A stretch of DNA of 63,572 nucleotides, the filler included, from Collodictyon triciliatum (taxonomy: Eukaryota), in assembly GCA_043381765.1 (NCBI GenBank). It is 11 parts of 11 records of this genome, joined end to end, with 100 filler letters (N's around TTAATTAATTAA, not from the genome) between each part and the next. Parts side by side here need not be neighbours in the genome. Positions count along the whole stretch, not along the records: positions 32,031 to 37,698 come from JBHJMP010005097.1; 10 more parts are not named here. The stretch is one strand, 5' to 3'. The notes under the pieces were generated by a model, which did no database searches, was not told the DNA's origin, and saw nothing but the letters and a program-made list of their open reading frames with translations. Both the position numbers and the translations under genes were made by a program. How positions within the stretch are numbered: position 1 is the stretch's first letter; every line of letters starts with the position of its first letter. Positions 6,446 through 37,698 of this stretch are shown here, one piece after another.

Positions 6446-6839
6446 CGGATCACCTGCGGCCCGTGTTTGGTCTTGTGGGCGCTTTTCTTCTTTTTTTTTC
6501 CTTCTTTTTTCTCCTTTTTTCTCCTTTTTTCTCCTTTTTTCTCCTTTTTTCTCCTTTTTTTTCCTTTTTTTCCCTTCTTTTTCCTTCTTTTTTCCTTCTT
6601 TTTTCCTTCTTTTTTCCTTCTTTTTTCCTTCTTTTTTCCTTCTTTTTTCCTTCTTTTCCCTTCTTTTTCCTTCTTTTTCCTTTTCCTTTTTTTTTTTTTT
6701 TTTTTCCTCTTTCTTCCTCTTTCTTCCCTCTGGGAATGAAAATATGGTATTGGGGCCCTCTTTTTGTTGTCATGGGGTAATAAATGCTGCACGTCCGCAG
6801 AAAGGTGTGCAGCAAGGGTATATGGTTTTTTCTTTTTTC

Positions 6840-7966: not shown

Positions 7967-8037
7967 TGTCCGTACCGGGAATCGAACCCGGGTCGCAAGA
8001 ATGGGAATCTTGCATGATACCACTACACTACACGGAC
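7967..8037 (-). tRNA. tRNA-Gly (CCC)
   Basis: GTCCGTGTAGTGTAGTGGTATCATGCAAGATTCCCATTCTTGCGACCCGGGTTCGATTCCCGGTACGGACA: 71-nt cloverleaf, anticodon stem CAAGA/TCTTG, loop TT-CCC-AT, A and B boxes, T5 terminator just downstream. Confidence 0.96.
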
Positions 8038-11568: not shown

Positions 11569-11818
11569 CCGTGTGGTTTTTGTGCAAAACCAAAGGGGTA
11601 AGTAAAGCTACGTATTAGTGCCACCTGAATAAAGCAGAAGGGATCGACCGATAGAAAAGCGTCGAAAGCCTTTGATGTTTTTATTTTCCGTCACGATTTT
11701 TTTTTCGATTTGTTTTCTTCAAAGTCTACTCACCAAGCACCCCAGCTTCGCAAACACACAGGACCCGCAAGGGAAGATCGGATCGGGTGTTGTTGCAAAC
11801 GTTTAAAGCGCCTGAGCG

Positions 11819-14638
<2,820 letters not shown>

Positions 14639-27793: not shown

Positions 27794-27866
27794 TGCCGAA
27801 ACTCGGGATCGAACCAAGGACATCAAGATCTTCAGTCTTACGCTCTTCCAACTGAGCTATTTCGGC
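27794..27866 (-). tRNA. tRNA-Phe (GAA)
   Basis: GCCGAAATAGCTCAGTTGGAAGAGCGTAAGACTGAAGATCTTGATGTCCTTGGTTCGATCCCGAGTTTCGGCA: 73-nt cloverleaf of eukaryotic Phe type, followed by a T-run terminator. Confidence 0.96.
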
Positions 27867-27924: not shown

Positions 27925-29450
27925 TGCGATTTCTGGTTGAGTTCGAGACTGATAGAAAAGCGGATAAAGTTATCGGGTCGATGAAAGTACGCACATGACA
28001 GTTTCTTATCAAATCGATTCCGACGAGTCCTTTCAACCATTATCTCAGACAAGGTTTACATCATATTTCATTCAACAGGATGAGTCTTTTGAGGGGACAA
28101 CAGGACGCTTTCCTTGCGTTTCTTGCTGGGCGATTCATTCAAAAAGCGATACATCTTTGTTTGTCTGGAATTATCGGAAGTGGCGCTTGACCGTCCCCTG
28201 GTTTCGGAACCATGCGTGGCCGGCAGTGGACTTTGCTTAACCAGAGTATGGATACGCGTTTGTGGTTTTAGAGACATACGCTCCTGCTTGCTCGGACTGT
28301 CTTTATTGTGTGAAGTTCCAAGCTTGGATTCGACTTGTGGTGTCTGCTCTTGCTCCTTGGTTCTCGGTGCGACGGGCTGGGGCAGCGTAAACAGACTATC
28401 TTTGGTGGGCGCTGGTTCTTGTGTTGCCTTCGATTTGGAATATCCTTTCGGATAAGTAACGAAGTCTGCCTTGAGGCCTCCTATGTTAACCATATTCACG
28501 TCAGTCTGAATGGATAGTTTAAAGGGGTTTCTTTCGGGGTTTGGAGATGCGCTGCTCTTGGGTCTTGCGATGTGCGGGCTTGTCCGGTGTTGGCGGTGGA
28601 GGGCTTGAGTGTGAGGATTCTGAAGAGGAACCGAGATTTCCTTCCATGTCATCGTCGCTGTCGCTGTATGCGCGTATCTGCTGTGAGTCTTGCGGGCTCA
28701 GTTAATGCCTGGCCTTGGCTTCCTTGACTCCGTCGCTGCTTGTCTGGTTGGCAGGTGTATTCTTTTGCGGGGCTTTTGCTTGTCGTTCGTTGTTCGCGGC
28801 TGGCGGACACTCTTTGAGGATGCGCTTCGGACACCTTTTGTCCATGACCGTAAACTTTGCAGAGAGCTGGTTCTTGTGACAAAGAAGCTTCACCACGGCA
28901 GTGTCTGTGGAGAAGCCTTTGTCCTTTTTGGTCTCCACGTGGGTCGGTCTGAACGGCTTCAGCTCCTCACGAAGGAGTTGCGGCCACACGTCCAGCGGTA
29001 GTTGGTGGAGCATCACCGAGGTCTCTGTTGGTTTACTTTTGCTGAAGCAGTTTATAATATCGCTCAAACTTACCTGCTTCAGCTCCAGAATCTTTCGGGC
29101 GTTTTCTGCAGTGCGAGAGGTAATCAGGCAAAGGCCTTCGCTATCCGGTAAGGGAAATTGGATGGTTTTTCCCAATGTTTGTTCGCTTTCAAGTAGTAGG
29201 CGAGCGCATCTGTTAGCCTGCGGGCCTTATTCTTGTTGTAAACGACTTGCTTGACCCCGTGCAAAAATACTGTCCGTTCAGACAGACTTGCAGGCGGCTT
29301 TCTTGCACAGGTCTTCATTTGGACTTACGTGCAACTCGGGGTTTTTCCGCACCAGCGTTGGAACCAGAAGAACTGGCTGCAACTTGCGAAGCCTTCCATG
29401 ATATGATTCGATTTTTGTTTTGCATCAGGTGTGCGCAGCATGGTTGAAGT
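27925..29450 (-). mobile_element. Interspersed element with frameshifted LINE-ORF1-like (RRM-like) coding region and no RT; copy 1
   Basis: ERTVFLHGVKQ… and TSVMLHQLPLDVWPQLLREELKPFRPTHV…TAVVKL segments plus a long disordered tail, broken by frameshifts; ~27925-28311 closely matches 37311-37698. Confidence 0.65.
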
Positions 29451-31596: not shown

Positions 31597-31930
31597 CTAT
31601 AGATAGTACAATTTCTATTAATTTCTATTTTCTTTTCGTTTTTCGTTTTTCGTTTTCGTTTTCTTTTTTCTTTTATTTTTTTCTTTTATTTTTTTCCTTT
31701 ATTTTTTTCTTTTATTTTTTTCTTTTATTTTTTTCCTTTTATTTTTTTCTTTTATTTTTTTCCTTTATTTTTTTCCTTTATTTTTTCTTTTATTTTTTTC
31801 TTTTATTTTTTTCTTTTATTTCTTCTTTTATTTTTTTCTTTTATTTTTTCTTTTATTTTTTCTTTTATTTTTTCTTTTATTTTTTCTTTTATTTTTTCTT
31901 TTATTTTTTCTTTTATTTTTTCTTTTATTT

Positions 31931-32030
31931 NNNNNNNNNNNNNNNNNNNNNNNNNNNNNNNNNNNNNNNNNNNNTTAATTAATTAANNNNNNNNNNNNNN
32001 NNNNNNNNNNNNNNNNNNNNNNNNNNNNNN
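31931..32030. other. Artificial scaffold-joining linker
   Basis: N44-TTAATTAATTAA-N44. Confidence 0.97.
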
Positions 32031-35000
32031 GCTCTTGATGAATACAAGAAATCACTGGACTTGAGAGTCAAACAGCTGGGCGAGAACGACTTGCAAGTGG
32101 CCCTATCACATGACCGCTTCGGAGACATCTATGTGAAGCAGTCAAAGTAATATTTGATCATTTATATACGTCAATATTCTGCTTTTTTTGTAAATATATA
32201 AGTATGCTGATCAATCTTTATGATAGGAATGAGCAAGCTCTGATTGAATACACAAAGGCCATGGAAATTCGCCAAAAGAAAGTGGGAAACGAGCATCCTC
32301 TTGTCGCAACATCGTATCAGAACTATGGCCATGTCTCTCTGGCTGGAAAAAAGTAGCATATATATCCATTAAAGACAGTTTTAAATACAGTTATGATATT
32401 TTTGAGAAATGTTAATATGATTGAATCACCAAGGTATGAAGAGTCTATTGAAAACTACGAAAAAGCGAAATCAATCCTTAAAAAATCGCTGGGAGCCAAG
32501 CATGCATCTATTGCCTCGACAATCCAGTTTATTGCGAGTGTTCATCTTGCCAGTGAAAAGTTTGGAATTACTAAATTTTAGATATTAAAATAAAATAATA
32601 ATTTTTCTTAAAATTGAATTTTTTCAAGATGAGTGTGGTTTTATATCTCACATTTGTATACTCTATTTATGGTTAAAATTTTACATCATATCATAATTCT
32701 AACTTATAAATATCAAATAAATATTGTCCTATATAGGAAAACTGAGGCCTTATCCTCATTAAAGCAATCGCTGGATATTTTCATGTCTGCCCTGGGTGAA
32801 AATCATCCGAATGTTGTGGCCTGCTATGAAATGATTGGAGACATCAGCCATGATTTGAAGAAGTATCATTTTATCAATTATGAATTACATTTATAATTGT
32901 GCCGAATAATATTTACTATATCTCAGATATAAGAATGCTTTGGAGGCTTATGCAAAGACACTGGATATTCGCGTGAGAACATTGGGCGAAAAGCATGCAG
33001 ATTATGCGACTTCTCTTGAGAATATTGGCCGAACAAACTTTGAGCTTAAAAGGTAACTTCTCTATTATATTAGAAAATCGAATATTTGATTAATACTTGC
33101 AAAATAATTTATAAATATTCACTAATGGGCATGCATTTAGATTGGACCAAGTCGTGGAATACTTCCAGAAGGCAGCTGCTATCAGAAAGGAGACTAAGAC
33201 AATCATGTCACTGAAAGATACTCATCAGATTGAAAGCATTATCCGCTTCATGAAGGAAAAGAAAGAGCATGAAGCCGTTATTCAGCTTTACAAAACGCTG
33301 ATTAATTTATTCAGCAAGCTTTACTCCTTGGATTATCCTGGGATATGGAACAGTTGTGAGGAAATTGACAAGACTTACAAGGAACTGAAGCAGCACAACG
33401 AAGCAGTGGCATTCTGGACTGAGATGAGAGACAAATTTGCTGATAAACTCGGATGGATTCACTTCAGAACATTGAACTCATGCGAATACTTGTCCGTCCA
33501 TTCAAAGGAAATTGGAATCAAAAAAGAGCCTGTCGAGTTTACAAGAGTCAAGGAATTCATCTGTGAAACTCTTGATGATGCAAAACTAGATGGGGAATGG
33601 AATCGTGAGCAAATAATCGCATCGTTATTCAGAATTGTCTCCATATCAAAGACTGATGAGAGCAAATCAAACAATGCATCTGCTGCAATCACACTTTTGA
33701 ATTTCATGAATATTTTGTTTGGTGGAATGGATTTATCAAACATCAAAATTCCAAATGCAAATCTCAGTAACTCAATCCTTGATGGTGCAAACCTCACTGG
33801 CGCCAACTTGGATGGTGTGGACTTCACGAATTCGATGCTTGGTGATTGTGTTTTTGATAATGCGCATATGAATAATGTGAAATTCGGAATTCCTCATTAT
33901 AAATTAGAAGGTCACACAAAAACTGTCGGAAGTGTTTGCAGTATTCAAGGACCGAATGGCGAAAATTGGTTGGCTTCTGGAAGTCTTGATAAAACAGTAC
34001 GTATATGGGATATAGCCACAGGAAAACAAATCAATACATTAGAAGGTCATAAAGATGATATCACCAGTGTTTGCAGTATTCAAGGACCGAACGGTGAAAG
34101 TTGGCTGGCTTCCTCTGGAATAGCTGATTTAATGATACGTATTTGGGATGTAGCCACTGGAAACCTAATCAAAATACTTGATTATACAAGACCTATTAAA
34201 AGTGTTTGCAGTATTCAAGGACCGAATGGTGAAAATTGGCTGGCCTCTGGAAGTGTAGATCATAGAATCAGTATTTGGGATGTAGCCACAGGAAACCAAA
34301 TCAAAACATTAGAAGGTCATAGAAATTATGTTGAGAGTGTTTGCAGTACTCAAGGACCGAATGGTGAAAAGTGGTTGGCTTCTGGAAGTGTTGATAAAAC
34401 AATACGTATTTGGGATGTAGCCACAGGAAATTTAATCAAAACATTAGAAGGTCATACTAATTATGTCAATAGTGTTTGCAGTATTCAAGGACCGAATGGT
34501 AAAAACTGGCTGGTTTCTGGAAGTGATGATAAAACAATACGTATTTGGGATGTAGCCACAGGAAATCAAATCAAAACATTAGAAGGTCATACTAGTTGTG
34601 TCAAAATTGTTTCCATTATTCAAGGACCGAATGGTGAAAAGTGGCTGGCTTCTGGAGGTCGAGATGATACTAACATACGTATTTGGGATGTAGCCACAGG
34701 AAACCAAATAAAAACATTAGAAGGTCATACTAGTTACGTCAATAGTGTTTGCAGTATTCAAGGACCGAATGGTGAAAACTGGTTGGCTTCTGGAAGTAGT
34801 GATAGAACAATACGTTTTTGGGATGTAGCCACCGAAAACCACATCAAAATATTAGAAGGTCATACAAGTAAAGTCAAAATTGTTTCCATTATTCAAGGAC
34901 CGAATGGTGAAAATTGGTTGGCTTCTGGAGGCGAAGATAAAACAATACGTATTTGGAATGTGGCCACAGGAAACCAAATCAAAACATTAGAAGGACATAC

Positions 35001-36933
35001 ATATGGTGTCAATAGTGTTTGCAGTATTCAAGGACCGAATGGTGAAAGTTGGTTGGCTTCTGGAAGTCGTGATAATACATTACGCATTTGGGATGTAGCC
35101 ACAGGAAACCAAATCAAAATATTAGAAGGTCATACGTATGGTGTCAATAGTGTTTGCAGTATTCAAGGACCGAATGGTGAAAGTTGGTTGGCTTCTGGAG
35201 GCGAAGATAAAACAATACGTATTTGGAATGTGGCCACAGGAAACCAAATCAAAACATTAGAAGGTCATACATATGGTGTCAATAGTGTTTGCAGTATTCA
35301 AGGACCGAATGGTGAAAGTTGGTTGGCTTCTGGAAGTAGTGATAAAACAATACGAATTTGGGATATAGCAACAGGAAACCAAATCAAAAAACTACAAAGT
35401 CATGAATATACTGCCAACAGTCTTTACAGTATTCAAGGACCGAATGGTGAAAAGTGGCTGGCCTCTGGAAGTGGTGACAAAACAATATGTATTTGGGATG
35501 TAGCCACGGGAAACCAAATAAAAACATTAGAGGGACACACAGGGTATGTCATAAGTATTTTCAGTATTCAAGGACCGAATGGTGAAAGTTGGTTGGCTTC
35601 TGGAGGCGAAGATAACACAATACGTATTTGGGATGTAATCACAGGAAATCAAATACAAAGTTTACAAAAATCAGAAGTTACCTACACCCAAGGAAAATAC
35701 CTTGTCAAGAAAGAAAAGCCAGACGAAGTCATCGCAGTATTCAAAAGAACAAGTGACGCGATGAACATGATTGACACCAACAGAATCCAAGACGCAAAGA
35801 CAGTCCAGATTATCGGCCCAAGAAATTTGCAAGGTGGAAACATCCAAATCAGAAATGTCACAGGATTGAGTCAATTCAGCAAATACCTCCTACTTTCCAT
35901 TGGTGCTGTTTCCTATGATGCGGACTTTGCTGCCTATTGTGAGCAAGGTAAATTCACAAAGTTCCAGGCTCAAATGATGGCTGAATGCTATGAAAATGGG
36001 TGGGTTGTTGAGAAGGACATTGAAAAAGCCTACCATTGGAGATACGTCGCCTTTCCAAAATTATCATTAGACTTTGATGGATTGAAGCAACTCGCACAAC
36101 AAGGCTCAAAGGAGGCATTCAATGTTTTGAAAGAAATGGCTGAAGTGAAACACGAAAGTGGACAATGCAAGTATCCACAGGCTGTTTCTTCTGTTGCTGA
36201 ATGCTATGAGAATGGATGGGGTGTTGAAAGCGACACCGAGAGAGCAATAATATTGTTTGAAAAGGTCAAAAAAATTGATAAACTGAGGCAACTAGCGCAA
36301 CAAGGCTCAAAGGAGGCATTCACTGTGTTGATAGAAATGGCTGAAATGAAACATGAAAGTGGACAATGCAAGTATCCACAGGCTGTTTCTTCTGTTGCTG
36401 AATGCTATGAGAATGGATGGGGTGTTGAAAAGGACACCGAGAAATCAGCTGAATGGTTTGGAAATGCTGAAAACTTTGATAAGCTGAGGCAATTCGCACA
36501 ACAAGGCTCAAAGGGTACATTCAATGTTTTGATAGAAATGGCTAGTATAAAGGATAATGTCGGAAGATGGAATGAAAAATACAAATATCCGCAGGCCGTT
36601 TCCATTGTGGCTGAATGCTATGAGAATGGGTGGGGTGTTGAAAAGGACATTACGCTGTTTCTTAAATGGGAAATATTTGGTGGAAAAGCTGAAAACTTTG
36701 AGAAACTTCGGCAATTTGCACAACAAGGCTCAAAAGATGCATTTAATGTTTTGACAGAAATAACTGATATTAAAGTAGACATTCTAAAGCACCAGACACG
36801 AGGAGAAAAAATTGGTGAAAAATACAAACATCCACAGGCCGTTTCCATTGTGGCTGAATGCTATGAGAATGGATGGGGTGTTGAGAAAGACTCCGAGAAA
36901 GCAGCTGAGTGGAGAAAGAAAGCCTCAGCTTAA
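32031..36933 (+). CDS. TPR + pentapeptide + 13 WD40 + 5 Sel1-like repeat protein (5' truncated)
   Basis: 126-nt TPR exons 32227-32352, 32434-32559, 32737-32862, 32927-33052 (plus partial exon ending 32146) spliced in frame to a single exon 33141-36933 with ANLSNSILDGANLTGANLDG pentapeptides, 13 GH…IQGPNGE.WLASG..D.TIRIWD repeats and 5 AECYENGWGVEKD-type repeats. Confidence 0.92.
33900..35660 (+). repeat. Coding tandem array of 13 ~135-bp WD40 units with high internal conservation
   Basis: CAAGGACCGAA(T/C)GG recurs about every 135 nt; segments starting at 34921 and 35191 are nearly identical. Confidence 0.95.
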
Positions 36934-37093
36934 CAAGGTAAGTAGTATAGTAAATGCATATTAATCCATGTTCGTTAACTATATTCATTTTAGATGGAGA
37001 GATTCTCTGGGTTTTTTTCAAGCAGACCTCCACTTTTTTCCCACAAGAACGCTCCATGAAATCAGAATAAAACCATTTCACAGCGGATTGATG

Positions 37094-37698
37094 TTTTTTT
37101 TTTGGTTTCTTTTCAACGGTTTATTGAGATAAAAAAAGCCGAGGAAACCGCCTTTGCCTCAAGGACAAAAATGAGCTGTGGACGAGACAGTGAAAACCCC
37201 GGATTGTGCGGTTGGAGTTTTTGTGTTTTGGGTGGAAAGAGAAAGAAAGTAGAAAGGAGAGAGAATGTTCTCACACGCAGACTATTCTACCCAAAGTGAA
37301 TCAGCTCCAACGCGATTTTTGGTTGTACTCGAGACTGACAGAACAGCGGATAAAGTTGTCGGGTCGATGAAAGTACGCGCATGGCTGTTACTTGGAAAAT
37401 CGATTCCGACGAGTACTTTCAACTGTCTATCTCAGACAATGTTTACATCCTATTTCATTCCACAGGATGAGTCTTTTGAGGGGACAACGGGTCACTTTAC
37501 TTGCGTTTCTTGCTGGGCGACTCTGACAAAAAGCGATGCATCGTTGTTTGTCTGGTATTATCGGAAGTAGCGCTTGACCGTCCCCTGGTTTCGGGACCAT
37601 GCGTAGCCGGCAGTGGACTTTGCTTTACCGGAGTATGGATACGCGTTTGTGGTTTTAGAAACATACGCTCCTGCTTGCTCGGACTGTCTTTGGTGTGT
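37094..37698 (-). mobile_element. 3' end of the ORF1-like element, copy 2, with AATAAA and poly(A) tail
   Basis: 37311-37698 matches 27925-28311; it continues through a ~200-nt 3' UTR to AATAAA (37120-37125) and an A10 tail (37094-37103) on the minus strand. Confidence 0.75.

Follow-up and report, generated by a model that had tools for sequence, protein, structure and literature searches.

Does a run of equal, symmetric exons that each encode one tetratricopeptide repeat (TPR) mark a gene that diversifies by skipping, duplicating or exchanging those exons? The question is raised by a gene in a 63,572-nucleotide (nt) stretch of DNA from the Collodictyon triciliatum assembly GCA_043381765.1 (the window), in which a first-pass annotation described an array of 126-nt TPR exons and proposed combinatorial diversification of a binding surface in a protist. 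The organization of one repeat per exon is a proposed route to receptor diversity in brown algae. Our analysis leads to a different answer, which we consider likely: the window holds the C-terminal 1,470 codons of an expressed gene, probably of the STAND/NLR-like type, in which the 126-nt pattern is a relic of an early tandem duplication of an exon together with its intron, and the order of the units has been fixed since.

The gene lies on a single scaffold of 5,668 nt (32031–37698). Its model was obtained by reading the sequence directly and assembling exons and introns by script (Table 1). The standard genetic code fits, and the reading frame of the joined exons is uninterrupted over 1,470 codons as far as the TAA stop codon. 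All five introns begin with GT and end with AG; they range from 64 to 177 nt in length and have a GC content of 0.18–0.25, compared with 0.40–0.47 in the TPR exons. In each of the four complete TPR exons (E1–E4), the first base completes a codon interrupted by the preceding intron and the last two bases open a codon that the following exon completes, so that any of them can be removed in frame, as the first-pass annotation had stated. The fifth exon, described there as cut by the scaffold edge, does begin directly after the linker at 31931–32030 and has its 3′ end in phase 2. In alignments with the relatives introduced below, it is three residues plus one base short, which is the 10 nt needed for 126; its counterparts are the units at residue 1164 of P0242 and residue 263 of P0243, each with an offset of 3 residues.

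TPR_12 (PF13424) matches all five exon peptides at approximately profile positions 19–58 of 77 in Pfam, and each exon encodes one 42-residue period of the kinesin light chain (KLC) type. Only one of the five peptides (E4, 32.3 bits) passes the curated TPR_12 cut-off of 30.1 bits alone; the other four score 17.2–25.5. Each period thus occupies its own 126-nt exon in 4/4 complete exons, with which the partial exon is consistent, and the size, phase and repeat type reported for the four complete exons were borne out by the gene model, Pfam and the splice joints described below. Judged by the TPR_12 positions and the TPR consensus, the exon is offset from the TPR motif: it holds the second helix (B) of one repeat and the first helix (A) of its successor, with the linker between them. 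The description of one TPR per exon therefore holds for the 42-residue period and not for the motif boundaries.

Splicing was assessed by aligning four sequencing runs to the gene at 80% likeness, in the form of assembled contigs, which lose rare isoforms. The best share of sampled words in any run was 0.07 and none is recorded as RNA; that one of them, X8, is RNA (“RNA?”) is our guess. X8 contributed 140 contigs, with a likeness of ≥99% in 10, 95–99% in 43, 90–95% in 55 and <90% in 32. Their depth was 0–7.6 in bins lying mostly or wholly within introns 1–4 versus 38–130 in exon bins. Joints fell exactly at the GT..AG borders of introns 1, 2 and 3 (32146>32227, two contigs; 32352>32434, three; 32559>32737, one). 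Intron 4 was bridged by diverged contigs, which carried 11–14 other letters at the joint, and around intron 5, the letters of the adjoining exon were found on loose contig ends, in 2 records at 33052 and in 4 records at 33139. Among the 15 X8 joints listed (7 more exist), none connects the borders of non-adjacent exons, and the exon joints seen follow genomic order. The exon–intron borders are also crossed, at 90–100% likeness, by DNA contigs of X1, X2 and X4, which are metagenomes from freshwater and sediment; one X4 contig of 151 nt shows 0 differences from the gene. With word shares this low, the habitat labels of the runs are not evidence by themselves.

To what kind of protein does the array belong? 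When 1.84 billion representative proteins were searched exhaustively with HMMER, residues 1–240 of the last exon matched 5,215 of them at E ≤ 0.001, and nearly all of the best 150 listed match the pentapeptide part only. Just three proteins, P0241, P0242 and P0243, reached E ≤ 1e-30; they cover residues 2/4–239 of the query at 37–42% identity. In EukProt, these three and a fourth, P0271, appear as Trinity transcripts with the label Diphylleia rotans. A protist source, as the first-pass annotation had it, is plausible in view of this label on the full relatives. All four transcripts have the module order of the window gene (TPR_12, helical region, pentapeptide repeats and WD40 repeats), and P0241–P0243 end in a Sel1-like tail. 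The likeness extends to a unit-by-unit correspondence of the TPRs, and over the equivalent region of P0242 and P0243 TPR_12 scores approximately 136 bits.

In P0242 (2,619 residues), CH (43.5 bits) and DUF4062 (42.3 bits) domains exceed their respective cut-offs and lie upstream of the TPRs. A P-loop region (approximately residues 618–845) matches NACHT at 25.1 bits (cut-off 26.7), nSTAND1 at 24.4 (27.1) and NPHP3_N at 22.9 (24.8). NB-ARC is absent from the 13 Pfam families listed for P0242 at E ≤ 0.01. Because the modules shared with P0242 are preceded in that protein by CH, DUF4062 and a NACHT-like P-loop, the window gene is most likely the tail of a large STAND/NLR-like NTPase; the NTPase domain itself, judged from these relatives, would lie outside the window. 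The gene carries the C-terminal superstructure repeats that characterize STAND/NLR proteins (five TPR_12, 13 WD40 and four Sel1 matches). The Diphylleia-labelled transcripts differ from the window gene in their greater length (up to 2,619 residues), in their more numerous and less uniform WD40 repeats, and in possessing the N-terminal CH, DUF4062 and P-loop regions, whereas the window scaffold ends before any counterpart. In a limited literature search, we found no account of an architecture that combines CH, DUF4062, a NACHT-like domain, TPR, pentapeptide, WD40 and Sel1.

Other searches added little to this picture. A word-indexed search with residues 1–260 of the last exon found pentapeptide-repeat proteins only, bacterial wherever they were named, and the best protein-atlas clusters for the helical and pentapeptide part were cyanobacterial TPR-plus-pentapeptide proteins (0.82), a match that serves only as a lead. 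Two scans of metagenome contigs, the first by protein and the second by alignment A1, found no relative with which to extend the gene in the 5′ direction. Two short sequences, P0245 (132 amino acids from a 512-nt contig) and P0253 (77 amino acids from a 713-nt contig), match parts of the helical/pentapeptide region at 77% and 61% identity, respectively. Since this exceeds the likeness of the Diphylleia-labelled transcripts, closer relatives of the window gene exist in public data.

How could such regular exons have arisen? They are equal in length and symmetric because the period is 42 residues and every intron falls at the same point of the repeat. In the scheme that we favor, a unit of one exon plus its intron, encoding one 42-residue KLC-type period, would have been duplicated in tandem a few times early in the history of the family. 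Given a strict 42-residue period and a common intron site at the helix A–helix B turn, 126-nt exons of phase 2–2 would follow automatically. The units would then have diverged, each with its own identity and with their order fixed, to leave a short TPR arm of approximately 6–7 units, roughly the size of the KLC TPR domain. Five of these units lie in 126-nt exons, and the last is half inside the final exon. The arm may form part of a sensor or scaffold region; it is followed, in one long exon, by probable TPR-like hairpins, a pentapeptide β-helix, 13 WD40 blades and Sel1 repeats.

A second scheme holds that the array existed as one exon and that introns were gained independently at one favored site in each repeat. 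This is consistent with the finding that every intron is inserted behind the second base of a Lys or Arg codon (AA/G, AA/G, AA/G, AA/A and AG/A) in an A-rich context, that the introns are unrelated to one another (no match beyond 16 nt) and that none of the downstream repeat types, whether TPR-like hairpins, WD40 or Sel1, contains an intron. However, five gains at an identical codon position and phase make it less parsimonious than duplication of a unit, and the classic proto-splice AG is present at only one of the five exon ends. There is also a hint that the position is old: the search motif given for the 42-residue TPR-associated sequence of the brown alga Ectocarpus (GKYxEA...; Zambounis et al. 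2012, PMC3341825) opens at this very turn, and the window exons start one residue past the corresponding G-K, so that the register is possibly the same, which is a lead only. On balance, we regard parallel gain as doubtful and the duplication of an exon-plus-intron unit as the better account.

The brown-algal precedent invoked by the first-pass annotation is real. The Ectocarpus NB-ARC-TPR genes comprise 124 TPR exons of 126 nt (42 amino acids) in 13 loci, and decayed exons within introns together with untraceable paralogy were interpreted as the outcome of shuffling (Zambounis et al. 2012, PMC3341825). Brown-algal LRR exons are 72 bp long and “in phase 2”, and alternative splicing is reported for them (PMC11378527). 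The window gene is like the Ectocarpus genes in having separate 126-nt, 42-residue exons of a KLC-like TPR type downstream of what would here be a STAND-type NTPase. It is unlike them in three respects. The Ectocarpus loci contain many exons and decayed copies, whereas the array here is short and collinear with distant relatives, and no decayed exons were found; the NTPase there is NB-ARC, whereas relatives of the window gene have DUF4062 plus a NACHT-like domain; and pentapeptide, WD40 and Sel1 repeats come after the TPRs in the window gene. Alternative splicing of brown-algal TPR exons was reportedly described by Teng and colleagues in 2023, according to a paper that cites them. Our literature search, which was limited and covered Ectocarpus work without its supplements, yielded no account of the 126-nt TPR exon pattern outside brown algae; on repeats per exon in NB-ARC/WD40 proteins, it turned up papers on fungal NLRs and brown algae only. 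The pattern is thus already known from brown algae; the window gene has it, lacks the signs of shuffling and probably belongs to a different NTPase class.

The evidence on shuffling comes from the exons themselves, from the rest of the window and from the relatives. Compared pairwise in register, the five TPR exons are only 38–52% identical in nucleotides and 15–37% in amino acids. A five-exon profile run with filters off against all six frames of the 63.6-kb window recovered only the five exons (E ≤ 5e-21; next E = 0.31), and detected no decayed, extra or reverse-strand TPR exon within the window, introns included. When the six units were matched without gaps to the relatives, each found its best match at the corresponding position both in P0242 (1164(+3), 1206, 1248, 1290, 1332 and 1374) and in P0243 (263(+3), 305, 347, 389, 431 and 473), with a spacing of exactly 42 residues. 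Best matches were positional for 5/6 units in P0241, a transcript that begins inside the array, and for 3/6 in P0271. The positional scores of the five TPR exons against P0242 and P0243 were 68–126, versus ≤63 between exons of the window gene. The best conserved unit is E4, with 24 of 41 residues identical to the equivalent units of both P0242 and P0243. The paralogues P0243 and P0242 are themselves collinear, with only 3 gaps in 1,094 residues.

A tree of individual units, suggested by the first-pass annotation as a check for shuffling between loci, points in the same direction. Built from 19 units of the window gene, P0241, P0242 and P0243, it groups units by position, requiring 5 changes of position label where the minimum is 4; shuffled labels required a mean of 12.1, and not one of 200 shuffles was as low. 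None of the Ectocarpus-type signs of shuffling (decayed exons, untraceable unit paralogy, variable number or order) was found here. Of the three findings that the first-pass annotation held would jointly speak against diversification, namely constitutive splicing, a single-copy gene and conserved exon order, collinear exon order across paralogues was observed, whereas a single copy was not. Up to 11 differing X8 contigs, with likeness from <90% to >99%, lie over a single position within 32031–33900. The gene therefore belongs either to a sizeable family of paralogues or to a variable or mixed population.

These results bear directly on the proposal that the symmetric 2–2 exons are working cassettes, skipped, duplicated or swapped to diversify a TPR binding surface. 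In its favor, the frame survives the loss of any one of E1–E4, exons of this size are tied to shuffling and alternative splicing in Ectocarpus (PMC3341825, PMC11378527), and variant transcripts form a family, with up to 11 contigs at one place. Three X8 joints of one contig each (32116>32260, 32147>32312 and 33028>33250) are also without an explanation in the gene model. None of them lies at an exon border, though, and other letters are present wherever their content is known; most simply, they derive from diverged relatives. Moreover, the exons are divergent and their introns unrelated, the units keep both their place and their 42-residue spacing in relatives and cluster by position, no decayed or reverse-strand exon is found in the window, and no listed joint skips an exon. 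Two isoforms in the P0242 cluster are 10 substitutions apart and show no differences in blocks of 42 residues. In-frame skipping is possible with exons of symmetric phase, and nothing that we observed requires it. We therefore judge the cassette proposal improbable, and the combinatorial diversification put forward in the first-pass annotation found no support in these comparisons. The TPR exons look old and fixed in order, rather than a device that generates diversity by shuffling or splicing on an evolutionary scale. Since the pattern is present here without detectable shuffling, symmetric 126-nt TPR exons alone do not prove ongoing diversification. The gene suggests that the same exon pattern can exist outside brown algae, probably in another STAND class, without such shuffling.

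That the window sequence is a pseudogene fragment or an assembly artefact, as might be suspected of an unplaced scaffold of only 5,668 nt bounded by a truncated exon on one side and an interspersed repeat on the other, is very improbable given its open spliced frame of 1,470 codons with canonical splice sites, the spliced X8 contigs at 90–100% likeness and the independent metagenome contigs that cross exon–intron borders, one of them 151 nt long and free of differences.

Several points weigh against the reading that we prefer, in which the array is an ancient duplication within a STAND/NLR-like gene. The NTPase domain would lie outside the window, and the relatives from which it is deduced are only 37–42% identical, with NACHT-type matches below the Pfam cut-offs. 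These relatives are known from transcripts only, and the ancient duplication of exon plus intron is a step that we infer. The RNA evidence consists of assembled contigs from a presumed-RNA run, with 15 of 22 joints listed, and is compatible with rare exon skipping. The sizeable family or population to which the 11 differing X8 contigs point would also make exon exchange among close members possible. As for the positional comparisons, the score of E1 at its own position in P0242 (75) is barely above its non-positional score (73). The unit tree contains no strong branches (0/16 starred), and one long row, P0241_E1, falls in the wrong group.

If the TPR exons are old, is any part of the gene evolving by recent exchange of repeats? 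Tandem Repeats Finder (TRF) reports the WD40 array as 12.8 copies of a 135-nt period with 83% matches, and the pairwise nucleotide identity of its repeats averages 0.79 and reaches at most 0.93. Variation in the protein sequence is concentrated in few columns, with entropy peaks directly behind the G-H dipeptide and around the turn S-G-S-x-D, the pattern described for WD40 arrays of fungal NLRs. In fungal NLRs of the HET-E/NWD type, homogenized repeats may be TPR, ANK or WD40, and Dyrka and colleagues are said to have described fungal NLRs with highly internally conserved (HIC) repeats in 2014. The WD40 array shows the HIC hallmark of near-identical DNA units with few variable positions; the TPR exons, at 38–52% nucleotide identity, do not. 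The window gene thus resembles fungal NLRs in having a C-terminal WD40 array that is near-identical at the DNA level, with units differing at few positions, and is unlike them in that only the WD40 and, in part, the Sel1 repeats are homogenized, whereas the TPRs are old. A second recently homogenized array in the last exon is the Sel1 region at 36083–36649 (TRF period 201, 2.8 copies, 83% matches).

Recent homogenization accordingly lies in the WD40 array, within a single exon and independent of the exon structure. Ongoing diversification, if any, is to be sought there, and the array is a better candidate than the TPR exons. In a multi-repeat STAND architecture of TPR, pentapeptide, WD40 and Sel1 repeats, it is WD40, not TPR, that is marked by recent homogenization, which makes it the domain to study first. 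It is tempting to speculate further that the gene represents a family of giant NLR-like proteins (CH-DUF4062-NACHT-like, TPR, pentapeptide, WD40 and Sel1) in a little-studied protist lineage, whose variation is organized on two levels: a TPR arm of 126-nt cassettes that regulated exon skipping can shorten in frame, and a WD40 sensor that recombination inside a single exon homogenizes and diversifies. We hold this to be a long shot. Were it true, the 126-nt exon, and possibly its intron register, would be common to this family and brown algae, and would point to an ancient exon-structured KLC-type TPR module that was shared or exchanged across eukaryotic supergroups.

The part of the last exon that follows the TPR arm was also modeled. 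For 33141–33702, AlphaFold2 produced a model with a pLDDT of 87 that contains helices from H2-18 to H173-188, corresponding to hairpins over approximately 190 residues, and no Pfam family reached its cut-off in this region. The best rows of a Foldseek search with this model were all KLC-type TPR domains, although the matches were weak (E 1.7e-3, TM 0.34–0.38); the top row was PDB 4y6w, a Podospora KLC-like protein with near-identical TPR repeats. Residues 1–190 of the last exon are therefore probably TPR-like. In the pentapeptide region, the model shows one-residue strand rungs at 5-residue intervals. The TPR arm itself shares with kinesin light chain (TPR_12/TPR_10; PDB 3nf1, 3ceq) its 42-residue period, its TPR_12 matches and a number of units close to six, and KLC TPR structures are the best, if weak, fold matches of the adjoining helical region. 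Unlike kinesin light chain, the window gene shows no heptad-repeat kinesin-binding part, and its TPRs are embedded in a much larger multi-repeat protein.

Table 1 Features of the TPR-exon gene and its scaffold, in positions of the window.
Feature	Position	Strand	Details
Partial TPR exon	32031–32146	+	116 of expected 126 nt; scaffold edge cuts 5′ side; ends in phase 2; TPR_12 E=0.0059
Intron 1	32147–32226	+	80 nt; GT..AG; GC 0.23; exact removal in 2 X8 contigs
TPR exon E1	32227–32352	+	126 nt; phase 2 at both ends; TPR_12 E=1.5e-5
Intron 2	32353–32433	+	81 nt; GT..AG; GC 0.25; exact removal in 3 X8 contigs
TPR exon E2	32434–32559	+	126 nt; phase 2 at both ends; TPR_12 E=5e-5
Intron 3	32560–32736	+	177 nt; GT..AG; GC 0.18; without TPR-like remnant; exact removal in 1 X8 contig
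TPR exon E3	32737–32862	+	126 nt; phase 2 at both ends; TPR_12 E=4.2e-5
Intron 4	32863–32926	+	64 nt; GT..AG; GC 0.22; bridged by diverged X8 contigs only
TPR exon E4	32927–33052	+	126 nt; phase 2 at both ends; TPR_12 E=1.2e-7, 32.3 bits
Intron 5	33053–33140	+	88 nt; GT..AG; GC 0.23; X8 loose ends at 33052 and 33139
Last exon	33141–36933	+	3,793 nt; no intron; ends in TAA
Helix B of last TPR and about four more α-hairpins (probably TPR-like)	33141–33702	+	start of last exon; no intron
Pentapeptide-repeat β-helix	33703–33885	+	PF00805 E=4.4e-14; PDB pentapeptide proteins E 2e-9
13 WD40 repeats	33907–35664	+	45 residues each (one 46); PF00400 in 13 stretches
Sel1-like repeats, C-terminal	35990–36930 (start approximate)	+	PF08238 E=5.8e-27; 4 Pfam stretches
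Stop codon TAA	36931–36933	+	
Interspersed repeat	37312–37698	.	scaffold 3′ end, outside gene; 387 nt; 89.7% identity to 27926–28311 (other scaffold)
Linkers (10)	spanning 5588–60523		N44 + 12-nt six-frame stop motif + N44; e.g. 31931–32030

The window contains 10 pairs of 44-N runs with 12 nt between the runs of each pair; in the pair inspected (31931–32030), the six-frame stop linker occupies 31975–31986. The window is thus a series of approximately 11 short scaffolds placed end to end, each of roughly 5.6 kb except for one of 9.2 kb. Because the scaffolds are joined in this way, gene adjacency across the joins is artificial, and the other genes of the window with which the first-pass annotation compared the TPR exons lie on other, unlinked scaffolds. 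The interspersed repeat at the 3′ end of the gene’s scaffold recurs at 27926–28311, and those two scaffolds at least therefore belong to one genome. The open reading frames (ORFs) beside that second copy (28071–28697 and 28702–29226, minus strand) match no Pfam family at E ≤ 0.01. An ORF that looks eIF3g-like from its translation gave no match in a word-indexed search for longer proteins.

Long T/C-rich, microsatellite-like tracts occur at or near scaffold ends (31620–31930, 6500–6800, 49800–50200 and 53500–54200) and probably explain the assembly breaks there. Another scaffold encodes a RING finger ORF (11816–12280, plus strand) and a 410-residue ORF with a coiled coil and NHL repeats (13406–14638, plus strand). 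Among families at E ≤ 0.01, Pfam gives RING and NHL only for this scaffold, with no B-box. In a word-indexed protein search, the best matches of the NHL ORF were ≤34% identical and had no informative names. In the protein atlas, the ORF resembles animal clusters of the TRIM-NHL/Brat type (0.91–0.93), a resemblance that we did not use to call the organism an animal. Two tRNA genes, at 27794–27866 and 7967–8037, both on the minus strand, are the sole Rfam matches at gathering score in the window.

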